From the IMG/VR virus record IMGVR_UViG_3300037991_001364, positions 1 through 24,551 of that record: a DNA stretch of 24,551 nt; one strand, given 5' to 3'. Origin of the DNA: a virus (Duplodnaviria > Caudoviricetes). Shown here piece by piece: positions 1,851 to 24,551 of the stretch. Made by a program: the position numbers and the translations under genes. Each line of letters begins with the position of its first letter. The first letter of the stretch is position 1. Below the pieces are notes generated by a model. It did no database searches, was not told the DNA's origin, and saw nothing but the letters and a program-made list of their open reading frames with translations.

Positions 1851-3482
1851 TTACACGACAACCCAATTGGAAGTCGCGGGAACAGTGACCACCGCACCTG
1901 AGTTGATTGTCAGAGGGCCTGCGCTGATCGCATTTTTGTTTGCCGTAATCGTGTAACTCGACGTCACCACATTGTCGTGTTCATAAGCAAACTGATCTGT
2001 GCTGCCGCCAGACGCGCCACCGCCAATACTTCCCCACGCAGTGCCGTTATGGCCCTCGAACTGTGTTGTGGTCGTATTGAATCGCATGTAGCCAGTCAGG
2101 TTTGCAGCGTTGCCGCCATCGGCTGGCCGGTCGGTTGTCACCCCGTGAGGCAAAGCCACCGCGTCTGTTCCGTTTATGTCGAGCGTGACCGCAGGCGTGC
2201 AATTGATGCCAACACGGTTTGCGCTTACATCAACAAAAAGCCTGTCGGTATCAACCGTTAAATCTTGGTCGCCAAAATCTGCATCAATCTTAGTGCCTGC
2301 AATCGCAGCGGATGAGTTGATGTCTGCATTGACGATTGTGTCATCAGCAATTTTTGCCGATGTGATTTGAGAATCTGCAATATGCGCAGTATCGATTGAT
2401 CCATCAACGTAATGTTCAGAGTTAATGGAATCATCGGCAATCTTTGTGCCGTCTATTGCGTCTGCAGCTATCTTTGCAGTTGTAACTTGAGAGTCTGCAA
2501 TATGCGCAGTGTCAATCGAACCGTCTACATAATGCTCTGAGTTGATCGAATCATCGGCAATCTTTGTACCATTTACAGCGTCTGCAGCCAGCTTGGCATC
2601 TGTAATCTGAAGGTCAGCAATATGCGCGGTGTCAATCGACCCATCAACGTAATGCTCAGAATTGATTGAGTCATCTGCGATCTTGTCGCTGTTGATTGCA
2701 TCATTGGCAATGTATGCAGTCGCAATGGCAGTCCCGTTCCAAACGCCGGTTGCGATTGTTCCAACGCTTGTCAAGCTAGAAGCAGTAACGCCGCTGCCCA
2801 GCGTGCTGCCACTAAGAACACTAGCGCCGTTAATTTTGAATTCTTTGCCAGAGATTAGGTTTACATGCTCAGAAAAGTCCCAACTACTTGACCCGTTCAC
2901 CCATGTAATTGTGTGATCAGTGGAGCCCTTCAGGGTGATGCCGCCACCGTCAGCCGTCGTGTCAGTTGGTGTGCCAACTTTGCCGATCTCAATGTTTTTA
3001 TCCTCAACCGTCAAAGTGGTTGAATCAATTGTTGTGGTCGTGCCTTGAACAGTTAGGTTCCCAGGGACAGTGACTCCGGTTGCTGCCACAACGAATGCTT
3101 GCGTTCCACCGGCTGTGATGCCTACTTGGTCCGCTGCTGGTTGGTAAATGCCAGTGTTCACGTCACCAGCAAATGCAATTGTTGGGGCGGAATTGGTTCC
3201 TGCTGTTTTGAAGTCAAACTGGCCAGTTGCGCTTATGTTCAAGCGCTCTCCGCCAGCAGTTGAAACACCAATGGTGTTGTCTGCCGAAAGGAATAAACCA
3301 GTGTCGTTATCTCCATCAAACGCGATGCTTGGAGCAGCAGCCGTTCCGGTGCCTGCATTTTCCATCATGTCAGCGATGCTGACCTTCTTTGTGACGTTGC
3401 TGCCTATGTCAACCACGGCAACCACGTCTGTGCTGGTTGGCACGTTGTACGCCGCCAAGTCTGTGATTTTGATGTCAGCCAT
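1851..3482 (-). CDS. Long tail fibre protein with internal repeats (543 aa)
   Basis: MADIKITDL start, two 'GT..APSI.F.GD..TG.Y' repeats, a VQGTTTTIDSTTLTVEDKNIEIG segment, a 10/40-aa periodic shaft, GYMRFNTTTTQFEG, and a C-terminal YTITANKNAISAGPLTINSGAVVTVP..WVVV. Confidence 0.8.
   Translation of the reverse strand: MADIKITDLAAYNVPTSTDVVAVVDIGSNVTKKVSIADMMENAGTGTAAAPSIAFDGDNDTGLFLSADNTIGVSTAGGERLNISATGQFDFKTAGTNSAPTIAFAGDVNTGIYQPAADQVGITAGGTQAFVVAATGVTVPGNLTVQGTTTTIDSTTLTVEDKNIEIGKVGTPTDTTADGGGITLKGSTDHTITWVNGSSSWDFSEHVNLISGKEFKINGASVLSGSTLGSGVTASSLTSVGTIATGVWNGTAIATAYIANDAINSDKIADDSINSEHYVDGSIDTAHIADLQITDAKLAADAVNGTKIADDSINSEHYVDGSIDTAHIADSQVTTAKIAADAIDGTKIADDSINSEHYVDGSIDTAHIADSQITSAKIADDTIVNADINSSAAIAGTKIDADFGDQDLTVDTDRLFVDVSANRVGINCTPAVTLDINGTDAVALPHGVTTDRPADGGNAANLTGYMRFNTTTTQFEGHNGTAWGSIGGGASGGSTDQFAYEHDNVVTSSYTITANKNAISAGPLTINSGAVVTVPATSNWVVV
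2292..2731 (-). repeat. Coding tandem repeat, 120-bp (40-aa) period with a 10-aa sub-period
   Basis: IADDSINSEHYVDGSIDTAHIAD occurs three times, beginning at 2681, 2561 and 2441, with degenerate 10-aa units on both sides. Confidence 0.9.
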
Positions 3483-3518
3483 GACTCAGCCGTTCAGTAA
3501 ATGAATTTTAGCCCTGCC

Positions 3519-4646
3519 CTAGGTCTTGATACAGGGGAGCAATGCGACGTTGCGTGGACGCGCCTCGGCAGCGCCGCTGGTGTTGGTTGTGGCTGAAAAA
3601 CTGTGGTTGTGGCTCGCATTGAAGTTGATTTGACGGCCATTATTGGCGTCATGGCCTTCTAAGCCTCCGACGTTGCCACCATCACTAAAAACGCCTGTGG
3701 CGAGGTTGGCTGCTTGGTGATTGCCGGGACGGAACGAGCCTGTCAAGCTTGCTGTGCTTGTCGTTCCGCTGACAGAGTGGCTGTGGCTGGCATTTTGGCC
3801 GTTTTGCACGCTGCCTAAAGTACGCCCGCTATCTATCCCCTTGCCACTGTCTAAGCCTCGCAGAAACTCGCCACGCAGGTCCGGCACGTTGAAAGTAGTA
3901 GAGCCGTTGCCTGCGCCGTAGGTTGTCCCAATGGCAGCAAACAAAGTCGCAAAGGTTGTTCGGCTTATCGCTGCACCATTAGCGTGCAAGTAGCCAGTGG
4001 GAGCAGTTGATCTGGCTGAGTAAATAATTGTCCCAGCAGGGGTCAGGTCTGTTGCTGCCGGAATCCCTGCAACTTGTGCATCAACGTACGCCTTATTGGA
4101 CGCCATGTTGTTTGTCGTGGGATTGCCAGCAAGCGTCAAATCGCCTGTCAGCGTTCCACCTGCCAACTGCAGGAAATTAGCGTTGGCGTTTGTAATCTTC
4201 AAATATCGGGCATCACCATCAGCTTCTGTAATGCCCAAGGGGTCAACACGCACAAATGCGGCGCCGTCGTAAACCTTCAGCTCATCAGGCGTTTGGCTTG
4301 TATCTAGCCACAGTTGGCCCAATGCTGGTGAGGTTGGCGCAGTGCTTGAAGGGCTGGTCGAGATTGAAGAGCCAGGCAAAAAGCTGACAATCGTAAACGT
4401 CGCGCCGTTGAAGACTTTTAAGACAGGCGGGTTAGTGCTGGTGTCTACCCAAAGCTGTCCGTTGTACGGCGCAGGGTTGGTTGGGGCACTTGAGCCAACA
4501 GTTAAGCCAAGTTGAGTCAGGACTAAGCCAAGGCTGTTAGCGGTGATGCGCCGTGTTTCGCTTGCGCTGATGCTGGTAAAGGGGAGCACGTCATTGGCTG
4601 AGATCGTGCTAGCCGAGGGCAACTGGGAAATGCGTGCGTCAGCCAT
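3519..4646 (-). CDS. Tail fibre protein with phage tail-collar domain (375 aa)
   Basis: Collar motif PAGTIIY...APTGYLHANGAAISRTTFATLFAAIGTTYGAGNGSTTFNVPDLRGEFLRG, His-x-His motifs (HSHS, HNHS), an EARPRNVALLPCIK end, and two 'APT.P..GQLW.DTS..P..LKV..G' repeats. Confidence 0.88.
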   Translation of the reverse strand: MADARISQLPSASTISANDVLPFTSISASETRRITANSLGLVLTQLGLTVGSSAPTNPAPYNGQLWVDTSTNPPVLKVFNGATFTIVSFLPGSSISTSPSSTAPTSPALGQLWLDTSQTPDELKVYDGAAFVRVDPLGITEADGDARYLKITNANANFLQLAGGTLTGDLTLAGNPTTNNMASNKAYVDAQVAGIPAATDLTPAGTIIYSARSTAPTGYLHANGAAISRTTFATLFAAIGTTYGAGNGSTTFNVPDLRGEFLRGLDSGKGIDSGRTLGSVQNGQNASHSHSVSGTTSTASLTGSFRPGNHQAANLATGVFSDGGNVGGLEGHDANNGRQINFNASHNHSFSATTNTSGAAEARPRNVALLPCIKT

Positions 4647-16658: not shown

Positions 16659-17020
16659 CAGGAGCTAGCGCCCTTGAGAAGCACAAAGCTCAGCACGATG
16701 GCCTCGCTTGCGGTTGAGCCAACATTGGCCACAGTGATTGCGAACGAACCAGCAGCGATGCTGTTGGCTTGAACGAGATAGCTGCCAGCAGTACCGGCAG
16801 AGCTGTGGTTGACCACGACCACATCAGTGGCGGTGACCTTGTCGTTGTTGACCGTAAAAGTCACCTCAGCGGCGCCAGCAAGCTCAGCGCCGTTCATGGT
16901 GATTTGACCGGACTCTGTGTTGAGAGTCACGGCGGTTCCTTTGTTGGTGGCCTGGGTGACAGTGCCGCCGTTGGTAGGGCCAATTGCGCTACCTGCTGTT
17001 GCCTCGAAAATGGATGCCAT
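16658..17020 (-). CDS. Putative capsid decoration / head fibre protein (120 aa)
   Basis: Directly after the major capsid gene, with a strong SD (GAGGAGGT); beta-rich and Ala/Thr/Val-rich. Confidence 0.6.
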   Translation of the reverse strand: MASIFEATAGSAIGPTNGGTVTQATNKGTAVTLNTESGQITMNGAELAGAAEVTFTVNNDKVTATDVVVVNHSSAGTAGSYLVQANSIAAGSFAITVANVGSTASEAIVLSFVLLKGASS

Positions 17021-22589: not shown

Positions 22590-23942
22590 TCAATATAGGC
22601 GGATGCCTGTTCCCCGTCCAGCTCGTGCATTAAGCATCGAGAAGTCACGGTAAATCAAATAACCCAGCGCATCGTTCATATGGTCATAGCCAGCATCCTT
22701 GTCTGGGTCACCGGCTTCGGTGTAGCTCTGCAGCTCTAAGCACTCGATCGTTCGCTTGCAATTTGCTGACACTTGCAACCGGACTTCCCCCTTGCCGTTT
22801 TCCAGCAAAGCTTGAACAGAAGCCACCCGATCACGAATGGGAGGATTTGCCTTGGGCGATTGATTGCTGAACCCATACGACTCAAGAATCTGAATATCAG
22901 TGCGCGATGCGTTCGTGCTGCGGTTGCCGCCGGATGCGTCTGGGTAGATGTAAACCTTGCGACCTTGAGCACGAGATTGAATCTCTTGCGCCATGGCATC
23001 AGTGTCATGCGCTTTGCTGATCTCATCAATCAACAGAAGTTTGCTGCCCAAGCGGACGCCAATGACTGCGGACATGTTGCCGATGTTGAAGTCAACGCCC
23101 ACACGCAATGGCTCAGTGCTGACATCGGGGATGGAGGTTGTGACGTGCTTGTCACGACTGAACCTGTCGTAAACCTGGCCGGTCGTGAGGTTGCAGAACT
23201 GCCCCTCAAGATATGCCTTCAGCAGGCTCGGGTCGTAGTTGGCCTGAAGTCTTTCAATAAAATCTTGCGGCAGGTACGGGTTATCTGCCGTCCGCATTCT
23301 GATCAGCTTTCGGTCTGTGCGTTCCTGCGCTTCCTCTGTGCCAAAGGTGTTCCACATCCAACGGAAGCCCTCTGGCGTTGATGCTGCGCTGAACTGCCGA
23401 ACATTGCCGGACCTAAGACGACCGAGGATCTTTGGAAATGCTCGCGTGCAAATAGACGGGTTTACGGTATCAATTTCATCGCACAAGATATAAGCAAGGT
23501 TGAGGCCGATGATCCTTGAGTAGTTCTCAAACGACCGGCACAGCAGCTTGCTGTCACCGCTAGGAAAATGCAGGATGTACTCAGGCAATGGCGAGGCGCG
23601 AAACGTGTAGGGGATTTCGTAGTGCTCAAGAAACTGCTCAAAGTCCGCTTGCCAAATGTCACGAATCAACGGGCCGGTTGGTTCCATCACGCAACCCGTG
23701 AAGCCTTGGTTTGCAGCAGCCATAAAGCAAGCCTTTGCCGCTAGGGCTCGCGTCTTGCCAGCGCCATAGCCAGCACTAATGCCAAGGATTTCGGTCTGAT
23801 CGTCATCAACAAAGGCCCGCTGGCCTGGGTGCAGGTCGTCCCTGATCCGATCGAGAAGGCGCTGAACATCAAATGCCGTGTTGGCATCACCGATCCGCTG
23901 CAGCACAGAACCTTCGGCAATGTGGCCAAGAATTCCGTTCAC
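22590..23942 (-). CDS. terL: Terminase large subunit (450 aa)
   Basis: Q motif LHPGQ, Walker A AGYGAGKT, Walker B ILCDE, motif III STPEG, RNase H-like nuclease VGVDFN...YPDASG...YDHMNDALGY. Confidence 0.96.
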   Translation of the reverse strand: MNGILGHIAEGSVLQRIGDANTAFDVQRLLDRIRDDLHPGQRAFVDDDQTEILGISAGYGAGKTRALAAKACFMAAANQGFTGCVMEPTGPLIRDIWQADFEQFLEHYEIPYTFRASPLPEYILHFPSGDSKLLCRSFENYSRIIGLNLAYILCDEIDTVNPSICTRAFPKILGRLRSGNVRQFSAASTPEGFRWMWNTFGTEEAQERTDRKLIRMRTADNPYLPQDFIERLQANYDPSLLKAYLEGQFCNLTTGQVYDRFSRDKHVTTSIPDVSTEPLRVGVDFNIGNMSAVIGVRLGSKLLLIDEISKAHDTDAMAQEIQSRAQGRKVYIYPDASGGNRSTNASRTDIQILESYGFSNQSPKANPPIRDRVASVQALLENGKGEVRLQVSANCKRTIECLELQSYTEAGDPDKDAGYDHMNDALGYLIYRDFSMLNARAGRGTGIRLY

Positions 23943-24277
23943 TGCAACACCTGGGCAATCTGCGCAGCGGTTTTGATGCAGCCCAAGGCAGCGCCGAGGT
24001 TATTTTGCTTTCTGGCCTCTTTTTGCAGCGTTGCCAGTTGGGCAAGAATCTCTGCAGTAAAAGTCCGACGATCAAGCTCCCAGTCGGCGCACAAAAGTTC
24101 ACGCGCACGGCGGATGTAATCGTCTGCTGTCCTATCGCAGCACTCCCACTGGCTCGAGGCATATTGCAGTACGTCGGAGCGCGTTGCGCCGTTAGCCAAG
24201 AGGCGTGCAACACGGTTTACCCGAAGGCCTAGCTCGGCATTTGAGGACCGTTTTTTGGGCTTGATTGGTTTTGGCAT
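23939..24277 (-). CDS. terS: Terminase small subunit (putative)
   Basis: Helical protein with an HTH-like segment (RSDVLQYASSQWECCDRTADDYIRRA), directly upstream of terL with a GTGA overlap. ATG at 24277 is coupled to the upstream stop (TGATG). Confidence 0.75.
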   Translation of the reverse strand: MPKPIKPKKRSSNAELGLRVNRVARLLANGATRSDVLQYASSQWECCDRTADDYIRRARELLCADWELDRRTFTAEILAQLATLQKEARKQNNLGAALGCIKTAAQIAQVLQ

Positions 24278-24551
24278 CAAACAGGCCCTTCAGCTTTAGG
24301 GCTAGCTTGACAATAGTTGGAGCGTTCGGGTCGGTGATGCTCCGCCGCTGTGTCGGTGGACCCGACATTCGCCTGCTTCGAACGCATGTTCCTTTCCCCA
24401 CGGTACATCGAAGCTCCCATTTCTGCGATTTTCTTAAAAGGAATACATGGCACGGTTAAGCGTTCACGCGCTTTAGGGTTTAAAAAATAGAGATAGCGCA
24501 TTTGATAACCTTGCAATGGTTTCCAAGTGCGGAACTCGGAATCCATTTTTA
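24277..24551 (-). CDS. mom: Partial (5'-truncated) Mom-like DNA adenine modification protein, C-terminus
   Basis: The frame is open to the window edge. KPLQGYQMRYLYFLNPKARERLTVPCIPFKKIAEMGASMYRG matches the C-terminal 'GFQLRYIYFL....R.RL.VP.LPF..I...GA.MY.G' pattern I recall for Mom-family proteins. The catalytic core is outside the window. Confidence 0.65.
   Translation of the reverse strand, partial: KMDSEFRTWKPLQGYQMRYLYFLNPKARERLTVPCIPFKKIAEMGASMYRGERNMRSKQANVGSTDTAAEHHRPERSNYCQASPKAEGPV
24318..24385 (-). ncRNA. Non-canonical D-armless tRNA-Gly(UCC)-like RNA, 68 nt
   Basis: GCGTTCG / AAGCAGGCGAA / TGTCG-GGTCCAC-CGACA / CAGC / GGCGG-AGCATCA-CCGACC / CGAACGC-T-CCA. It has a perfect 7-bp acceptor stem, U discriminator, encoded CCA, a 5-bp anticodon stem with central TCC, and a T-like arm with one bulged A. 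Confidence 0.7.

Follow-up and report, generated by a model that had tools for sequence, protein, structure and literature searches.

The window analyzed here is the whole of the viral record IMGVR_UViG_3300037991_001364 in IMG/VR (Duplodnaviria; Caudoviricetes), a stretch of 24,551 nucleotides (nt) for which CheckV estimates a completeness of 62%. At its end, on the minus strand, lies the 3' part of a gene of the Mom family, the last 25 or so codons of which are occupied by a 68-nt element that resembles a glycine tRNA (tRNA-Gly) without its D arm. Our main finding is that this element, which descends from a tRNA, forms a strand-specific RNA structure that is conserved and covaries, and that it is linked to mom. 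The features of the locus, with the evidence for each in brackets, are as follows:

24318..24385, minus strand: whole D-armless tRNA-Gly-derived RNA, 68 nt (sequence, minimum free energy (MFE) fold, covariance model, family covariation)
24379..24385, minus strand: 5' strand of the acceptor stem, GCGUUCG, element positions 1-7 (sequence)
24368..24378, minus strand: 11-nt linker AAGCAGGCGAA in the place of the D arm, with A8 where tRNAs have U8 (sequence, fold)
24351..24367, minus strand: anticodon arm, with stem UGUCG/CGACA and 7-nt loop GGUCCAC, UCC centered (sequence)
24347..24350, minus strand: 4-nt variable stretch CAGC, its GC paired with the linker (sequence, fold)
24329..24346, minus strand: T arm GGCGG-AGCAUCA-CCG(A)CC (sequence)
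24322-24328, minus strand: 3' strand of the acceptor stem, CGAACGC (sequence)
24321, minus strand: discriminator U (sequence)
24318-24320, minus strand: encoded CCA (sequence)
24277..24551, minus strand: 3' part of the Mom-family gene (GNAT, DNA N6-adenine glycyl-transferase type), open at the window end (open reading frame (ORF), Pfam, identity to locus L002)
23939..24280, minus strand: phrog_34910 gene, 113 amino acids (aa), in the position of the small terminase (PHROG match)
22590..23942, minus strand: terminase large subunit (Pfam Terminase_6N/6C, phrog_2)

The element has the 7-bp acceptor stem, discriminator base, CCA end and 7-nt anticodon loop of a tRNA, and the equivalents of C35 and C36 fall at 24359 and 24358. 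Its T arm is kept and its D arm is gone. The other marks of a canonical cloverleaf are lost as well: A8 replaces U8, position 33 is G instead of U, the T loop AGCAUCA has NGC in place of UUC, and the T stem is made irregular by a bulged A at 24331, between its second and third pairs. These parts and losses had all been proposed in an original prediction made from the letters alone, and the sequence is exactly as described there. The point to be amended concerns the 11-nt linker, which is indeed present in the place of the D arm but is not wholly unpaired: a 2-bp helix joins its G14 and C15 to G38 and C39 in the variable stretch, lengthens the anticodon arm and is found both in the MFE fold and in the covariation of the family. 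The MFE structure calculated with ViennaRNA is the described fold plus this helix, at -26.6 kcal/mol; on its own, the stability of the window fold is mildly unusual (z = -2.15, with 5 of 200 shuffles equally stable).

Standard tRNA finders pass over the element, as had been anticipated: ARAGORN reports 0 tRNAs in the window, and an Rfam search (RF00005) gives no tRNA match there at E<=10. With R1, a covariance model built from 31 gap-free 68-nt relatives, the window element obtains 90.7 bits (E 6e-20). The runner-up in the 24.5-kb window, at 16920-17005 on the minus strand, reaches 11.9 bits (E 0.5) and was treated as noise.

The enclosing ORF is Mom-like, although this is seen best through a relative. 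The 90-aa fragment held by the window is by itself a weak match to Pfam family PF25680 (E 0.026; 14.6 bits against a cut-off of 27.1; profile positions 172-201 of 202), but over its whole 90 aa it shares 89% identity with the C-terminal end of an L002 ORF of 284 aa, and that full ORF matches PF25680 with E 1.7e-51 and 175 bits. In an alignment that includes the Mom proteins of L002, L005, L007, L187, a Psychrobacter phage and Mu, with positions counted by hand, the columns of Mu R111 and S124, both essential for Mu Mom (PMC13219725, Nat Commun 2026), are invariant; the equivalent region of the window gene falls beyond the window. The element begins 12 nt past the MYRG codons of the enclosing ORF, that is, just after them, as predicted.

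Covariation and forms of the element

Relatives were collected from two directions. A degenerate 27-nt DNA pattern drawn from the T arm and the 3' end, and blind to genes, gave 120 listed viral loci and 37 loci in bacterial genome assemblies; by estimate, this strict pattern occurs in about 330 stretches of IMG/VR, and a Mom peptide pattern in about 2,900. The 126 pattern occurrences reduce to 101 unique elements of 66-76 nt. Conversely, 12 Mom domains were aligned with their tails removed, and the 80 best viral loci were fetched by similarity to Mom alone, which yielded 54 distinct elements. In the pattern-derived set, the search itself accounts for part of the invariance seen in the 3' half, where it is the Mom-selected figures that carry weight.

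The stems change while their pairing is kept. The first seven related loci already hold five different acceptor stems, all perfectly complementary and all followed by UCCA, together with one wholly different yet complementary anticodon stem and one T-stem pair switched from G-C to A-U. Among the 101 unique elements, the acceptor stem is paired in all seven positions by Watson-Crick pairs in 82 and with one G-U in 11, and in six of seven positions in 6; the last 2 are poor, one of them being a deletion remnant (L030). A wider set of 145 unique elements contains 51 distinct 5' strands of the acceptor stem, and in this stem G-U outnumbers A-C by 16 to 1. Since G-U is tolerated and A-C is not, the pairing takes place on the given strand, as RNA.

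When all 99 elements were aligned with MAFFT and folded with RNAalifold, their unequal lengths put the anticodon arm out of register, and no pairs other than those of the acceptor, T and linker/variable helices were predicted. The gap-free 68-nt relatives from which R1 was built are free of this problem, and the long, low-GC forms, on which the model is weak, were checked by eye and by folding. In the R1 seed (n = 31), 95.9% of cells are paired, compared to 32-45% in controls with slid partners, the covariation score is 0.407 compared to at most 0.086, and 10 pairs show double changes. For the 54 distinct Mom-selected elements, whose alignment was fitted to the model and so leans to its structure, pairing is seen in 96.1% of cells (31-45% with slid partners), double changes affect 17 of 19 pairs and the covariation score is 0.596 (at most 0.095 in controls). 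The homologous mom loci thus share the conserved and covarying fold that had been expected of them, with GCG...CGC-U(-CCA), an NCC anticodon and a bulged T stem. Compensatory changes are seen in all five anticodon-stem pairs, in all five T-stem pairs (100% paired in the Mom-selected set) and in the linker/variable pair, which is CG in 18 and AU in 13 cases in the wider set and in 14 and 10 cells, respectively, in the Mom-selected set; acceptor pairs 4-7 show four pair types each in the latter.

Other positions hardly vary. Among the Mom-selected elements, G1 is found in 54/54, C2 in 53/54, G3 in 53/54, C70 in 50/54, G71 in 54/54, C72 in 54/54 and U73 in 53/54; each CCA base is present in 47-50 of the 54, the bulged A of the T stem in 54/54, and the central CC of the anticodon loop in 43/43 where aligned. 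Position 34 is A in 22, U in 16 and C in 5, so that ACC is the commonest anticodon, and position 33 is G in 23, U in 10, A in 6 and C in 3: the universal U33 of decoding tRNAs is not retained. The T loop begins with NGC in 133 of the 145 unique elements (UGC in 38, GGC in 69; AGC in the window). Published determinants of eubacterial tRNAGly for glycyl-tRNA synthetase (GlyRS) are G1C72, C2G71, C35, C36 and U73 (PMC10464925). This set is complete in the window element, and in the family it is held fixed while the remaining stem bases change by compensation. The original prediction had counted G3-C70 among the GlyRS identity elements too; the other five are borne out, and G3-C70 is absent from the passages of PMC10464925 consulted.

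The family ranges from near-canonical tRNA-Gly cloverleaves, through 72-76-nt forms with a D hairpin, to 68-70-nt D-armless forms, and all of them fold alone into the family structure. ARAGORN names the copy in L191 tRNA-Gly(acc) and that in L192 tRNA-Gly(tcc), and the L021 copy reaches 27.7 bits against the Rfam tRNA model, whose gathering score is 29; most family copies are missed by both programs. The weaker-scoring Mom-selected copies are low-GC full cloverleaves with GCG...CGC-U, a UCC or ACC anticodon and a UUCGA-type T loop; these low-GC copies have the CC-A-CC bulge of the family and no encoded CCA.

Copies also differ in how they are placed. In the cultured Psychrobacter phage vB_PmaS_Y8A (L166), the annotated Mom homologue stops at locus position 3645, two intergenic copies follow at 3653-3720 and 3725-3793, and the small-terminase ATG comes at 3811; compensatory changes distinguish the acceptor and anticodon stems of the first copy from those of the second. 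Tandem copies, 1-6 nt apart like a small tRNA array, are present in four loci (L166:3653-3793, L032:335-472, L138:1384-1527 and L164:970-1108). Six copies of the low-GC subgroup (L187, L181, L185, L193, L194 and L195) are inverted relative to mom, and that at L187:2142-2213 (minus strand) is antisense to mom and overlaps the last 34 nt of its ORF. Given these intergenic, tandem and inverted copies, the element is an RNA gene and not a protein tail.

Of 91 unique cases, 76 share a single phase in which the mom frame passes into the element and 15 show other phases, and the ORF stops before or within the element in 9/91. In the long forms L005, L090 and L112, the mom stop coincides with element positions 8-10, as UAG or UAA; in the short forms these positions are mostly AAG (59/91), and it is because the stop became AAG that the mom ORF now reads through the element. 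The notion of a D-armless RNA hidden inside mom therefore describes the window correctly but not the family: the in-ORF D-armless state is a derived form, whose relatives have free-standing, tandem or inverted copies, some of them full cloverleaves. A single origin of the D-armless form is not supported, as the short/cloverleaf state changes at least 20 times, compared to 46 times (range 39-52) with shuffled labels, on a quick, unrooted FastTree tree of 170 Mom proteins with crude length classes. In L007, a 151-aa alternative-frame ORF (3032-3487, plus strand) starts inside mom, crosses the element and runs in frame into the gene at the small-terminase position; it may be a chance ORF in GC-rich DNA or an N-terminal extension.

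Linkage to mom and neighboring genes

The association with mom was found from both sides. Among the pattern loci with flanks, the upstream ORF passes the Pfam Mom cut-off in 79 of 83, and L074, added by tblastn, brings this to 80/83; the other three are the deletion remnant L030, where 16 residues of the Mom N-terminus and the 3' portion of the element are all that is left, the rearranged L036, and L080, which is cut by a contig end. Among the Mom-selected loci, R1 finds a match at E<=0.01 in 62 of 80, directly 3' of mom in 61 and about 800 nt downstream in L172. Weaker R1 matches are present in 16 of the other 18, right after mom in 15 and about 290 nt downstream in L184. The L187 element was recognized by ARAGORN and by inspection, for a total of 79/80; no element was found in L210.

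In bacterial genome assemblies, 28 of the 37 pattern loci are real (R1 at 37 bits or more), and 26 of these have Mom just upstream, the other two being L149, cut by a contig end, and the orphan L161. The titles of the real records span many phyla and include cultured Bradyrhizobium, Caballeronia, Consotaella and Ancylobacter, the taxon of short contigs from metagenome-assembled genomes (MAGs) being unreliable. The other nine loci were rejected as chance matches in GC-rich chromosomes, with no fold and with R1 at 25 bits or less or no match. In the sample examined, the element marks one Mom clade, with at least 48% identity to L002.

What follows the element is less constant. The first downstream ORF (n = 61) is a small terminase, from six PHROG families, in 34 cases, phrog_34910 in 8, a large terminase in 2, an HNH endonuclease in 1 and an RNase E-labelled protein in 1; 4 belong to other unknown families and 11 are unassigned. 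As the downstream families vary, the constant partner is Mom and not the terminase.

In the window, mom is followed by the gene of phrog_34910, a family whose function is not annotated and which probably represents an unannotated small-terminase family, then by the large terminase and portal genes. A weak terminator-like hairpin with a T-poor tail lies at 24285-24302 (minus strand), 16 nt after the CCA, where the end of the mom ORF overlaps the start of the next gene; 2 such hairpins were found and 1.4 are expected by shuffle. Scans of the DNA surrounding the element for promoters and terminators, in the window as well as in the Psychrobacter phage, gave nothing above the shuffle expectation.

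On the other side of mom, a ParB_N / sulfiredoxin-like gene lies directly 5' in L002:1905-2534, L003:1896-2534, L007:1959-2471 and L166:2388-2999, the Psychrobacter phage included, for a conserved order of ParB-like, Mom, tRNA-like RNA and terminase. The ParB-like ORF directly adjoins the element in L030 and L036, two loci in which Mom has been lost or displaced. Within Mom itself, past the end of the Pfam profile, a C-terminal motif EMGA(S/G)MY(R/K)GE occurs in the window (24398-24421, minus strand), L002, L005, L187 and the Psychrobacter phage. As a general RNA-binding signature, EMGAxMY[RK]GE was rejected, because L007-type Moms carry the element without the motif, which is missing from Mu Mom too.

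Proposed function and rival explanations

A conserved structured RNA linked to mom is demonstrated by these results, and it is from there that we infer a function. Mu Mom moves glycine from Gly-tRNAGly to the N6 of adenine in double-stranded DNA, and the adduct then rearranges to the carbamoylmethyl base (PMC13219725); this is the donor that the original prediction had named. All three E. coli tRNAGly isoacceptors serve Mu Mom and Gly-tRNAAla does not, recognition being proposed by the authors to center probably on the tRNA 3' end; drawing on the translation pool may cost the phage, and late expression would limit that cost (PMC13219725). A precedent for a separate pool is the non-proteogenic tRNAGly of staphylococci, which have UGC for UUC in the T loop, bind elongation factor Tu (EF-Tu) weakly and feed Fem transferases. 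EF-Tu sequesters proteogenic Gly-tRNA and in this way inhibits FmhB; how tightly it binds the tRNA body depends almost wholly on the first three T-stem pairs (PMC7826273).

In view of the fixed GlyRS determinants, the linkage to Mom, the loss of translation features and the donor of Mu Mom, the reading we therefore favor as the most likely, and regard as reasonably probable, is that the element is a phage gene for a tRNA-Gly-derived RNA that is charged by the host GlyRS, excluded from translation and used by Mom as its dedicated glycyl donor. The RNA would be transcribed with mom, or from its own promoter where inverted, and would be excised by RNase P and 3' trimming; most high-GC forms encode the CCA, and a host enzyme would add it to the rest. 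GlyRS would then glycylate it through G1-C72, C2-G71, U73, C35 and C36. The bulged A, which falls inside the three-pair EF-Tu determinant, and the missing elbow would keep it off EF-Tu and the ribosome, and a protected pool of Gly-RNA would remain for Mom late in infection. With such a donor of their own, these phages appear to meet the translation-pool concern raised in PMC13219725.

A broader picture can be offered more tentatively. Mom and a co-inherited minimal glycyl carrier might form a portable two-gene module, a private channel from GlyRS to phage DNA that bypasses EF-Tu. Nothing would be left in the carrier except the parts required by GlyRS, by the processing enzymes and by Mom, and many lineages have lost its D arm. 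As U8-A9-G10 of the RNA form the mom stop in the ancestral arrangement, releasing the carrier would sever the mom message as well, and might thereby couple donor supply to the self-limitation of a toxic enzyme.

Several points weigh against a dedicated donor, beginning with the lean of the Mom-selected alignment and the built-in share of 3' invariance described above. No RNA run is listed as containing the window, and almost none of its words occur in the one metatranscriptome made from its sample; the stretch is covered, wholly or in part, by 20 DNA runs from marine and vent metagenomes. The GlyRS of L. plantarum needs an L-shaped body with D and T arms, and shows very low activity on an engineered D-arm-deleted tRNAGly and none on a T-armless one (PMC10464925). 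The 68-nt form may accordingly charge poorly unless the tRNA shape is restored, as it may be by the covarying linker/variable helix that lengthens the anticodon arm. Mom chemistry, moreover, needs no private carrier: Mu Mom takes any host isoacceptor, and more distant Moms are without the element, none having been found beside mom in phage Mu (best R1 score 7 bits; nothing by ARAGORN) or in 8 other cultured phages whose Mom is 24-39% identical to L002. Where element and mom overlap in the same orientation, an RNase P cut at G1 would split mom from its stop codon, which is a cost for the model. Finally, the orphan copy L161:1460-1527, on a Thiohalocapsa MAG contig, scores 83.8 bits with no Mom detectable within 1.5 kb and a beta-propeller repeat protein upstream; a remnant of a prophage or an artefact of binning could account for it.

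The rival that survives best, itself unlikely, is a cis-acting tRNA-like signal in the mom or late transcript that is not aminoacylated, and that would serve as a site for RNase P or for 3'-end processing, or would set Mom dosage or uncouple mom from packaging by affecting stability or translation. It would account for the co-orientation of most copies with mom and the overlap with its last codons, for the mom stop at element positions 8-10 in the three long forms, and for the place of the element at the boundary of the packaging module, and Mu Mom is described as toxic and tightly regulated. However, a processing site has no need of C35, C36 and U73, yet all three are fixed, and the six inverted copies, the tandem copies of four loci and the free-standing intergenic copies also argue against a signal in cis.

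We consider it less likely still that the RNA is a decoy in counter-defence, absorbing a host factor directed against tRNAGly or Gly-tRNAGly (anticodon nucleases, GNAT toxins), and that its adjacency to mom is a matter of gene order only. Type II GNAT toxins do act on charged tRNA (PMC13219725, figure 5 legend), and an RNA that keeps the identity features of tRNAGly and loses those of translation could suit such a role; but the near-exclusive tie to one Mom clade, from both directions (80/83 and 79/80), is unexpected for a general decoy, and the genes downstream vary.

An uncharged Mom-binding regulator or specificity cofactor, one that holds Mom inactive or guides it and donates no glycine, is similarly improbable. 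In its favor, the T arm and bulged A are invariant across very different hosts, which suggests a phage-encoded partner. The anticodon CC read by GlyRS lies far from the 3' end, which is what Mom recognizes according to the proposal in PMC13219725, and the fixation of this CC and of the discriminator U is best explained if charging matters.

That the element is an ordinary phage tRNA-Gly working in translation is very improbable. Some relatives are near-canonical cloverleaves and ARAGORN gives two of them that name, but the window form is without D arm, U8, U33 and UUC T loop, position 33 is mostly G and N34 mostly A in the family, the bulged A of the T stem is invariant, and ARAGORN and Rfam miss most copies. 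Hardly credible at all is a DNA site (a terminase pac or cos site, or an att site from a host tRNA gene) or a conserved Mom peptide tail: in the window, as in many relatives, the small-terminase gene does follow the element immediately, and the mom frame reads through in one phase in 76/91 elements, but the 16 G-U against 1 A-C point to one-strand RNA pairing, terminase families differ downstream of the same element, the element sits inside phage genomes as a whole tRNA-like unit rather than a 3' fragment, and compensatory changes alter the encoded residues, with phase and stop position varying.

A literature search returned no tRNA-like gene linked to Mom and no description of an armless phage tRNA, and the main text of PMC13219725 (its supplements not covered) contains 0 mentions of "tRNA-like" or "phage-encoded tRNA". 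Reserving a tRNAGly for a transferase is already known from staphylococci; the Mom-linked phage version is widespread and unannotated. It represents an annotation gap, a widespread RNA gene hidden in the last codons of a protein gene and missed by tRNA finders and gene callers alike. If the two-gene module were true, no natural armless tRNA derivative would have been known before it outside organelles, nor any amino-acid-carrying RNA dedicated to DNA modification. As a substrate minimized by nature, the element could also help to establish the separate requirements of GlyRS, RNase P, the CCA enzyme, EF-Tu and Mom, and cultured carriers are open to experiment: the Psychrobacter phage vB_PmaS_Y8A and the prophages of Bradyrhizobium, Caballeronia, Consotaella and Ancylobacter isolates.

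Comparison with known systems

Ordinary phage tRNA genes are like the element in their tRNA-gene origin, their occasional tandem copies and the near-canonical form of some members. Most Mom-linked members differ from them in that they fail the finders, are without decoding features and are tied to an enzyme gene rather than to codon usage. The 3' tRNA-like structures of plant RNA viruses are aminoacylatable tRNA mimics that carry identity elements for a host synthetase, and form the pseudoknotted termini of RNA genomes. By comparison, the phage element is an internal unit of the transcript of a DNA phage; its acceptor helix is a plain one of 7 bp, and its encoded CCA would have to be cut out. 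The D-armless tRNAs of animal mitochondria resemble it in having a short connector for the D arm and in keeping the acceptor, anticodon and T arms, but their role is in translation, together with organellar factors that have co-adapted to them. Every bacterial tRNA known is described as a canonical cloverleaf (PMC11551756), and an armless form in a bacterial virus is therefore without a described counterpart.

Phage Mu, which relies on host Gly-tRNAGly, has a Mom of the same family (PF25680) with the R111/S124 equivalents conserved, and the chemistry and donor class are presumed to be the same. Mu differs in being without a linked tRNA-like gene and in using any host isoacceptor, whereas the window clade carries its own tRNAGly derivative beside mom.

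The non-proteogenic NP1-3 tRNAGly of S. aureus and S. epidermidis (PMC7826273) are, like the element, extra RNAs of tRNAGly(UCC) type that keep the GlyRS features and have UGC, or in the phage family NGC, in place of UUC. They have been shown to be poor ligands of EF-Tu and the ribosome, as is predicted for the phage element, and they provide glycine for a non-ribosomal transferase, as the phage element is predicted to do. Fem transferases are themselves grouped with the GNAT-superfamily users of charged tRNA (PMC13219725, figure 5 legend). The staphylococcal RNAs differ in being chromosomal full cloverleaves, confined to staphylococci and devoted to peptidoglycan synthesis. The phage family is phage-borne and lies beside or inside the gene of its enzyme, with an invariant bulged A, a D arm lost in many lineages and DNA as the predicted acceptor. 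If the donor role holds, the partitioning of non-proteogenic tRNA, known so far in staphylococci only (PMC7826273), would extend to viruses and to a DNA acceptor.

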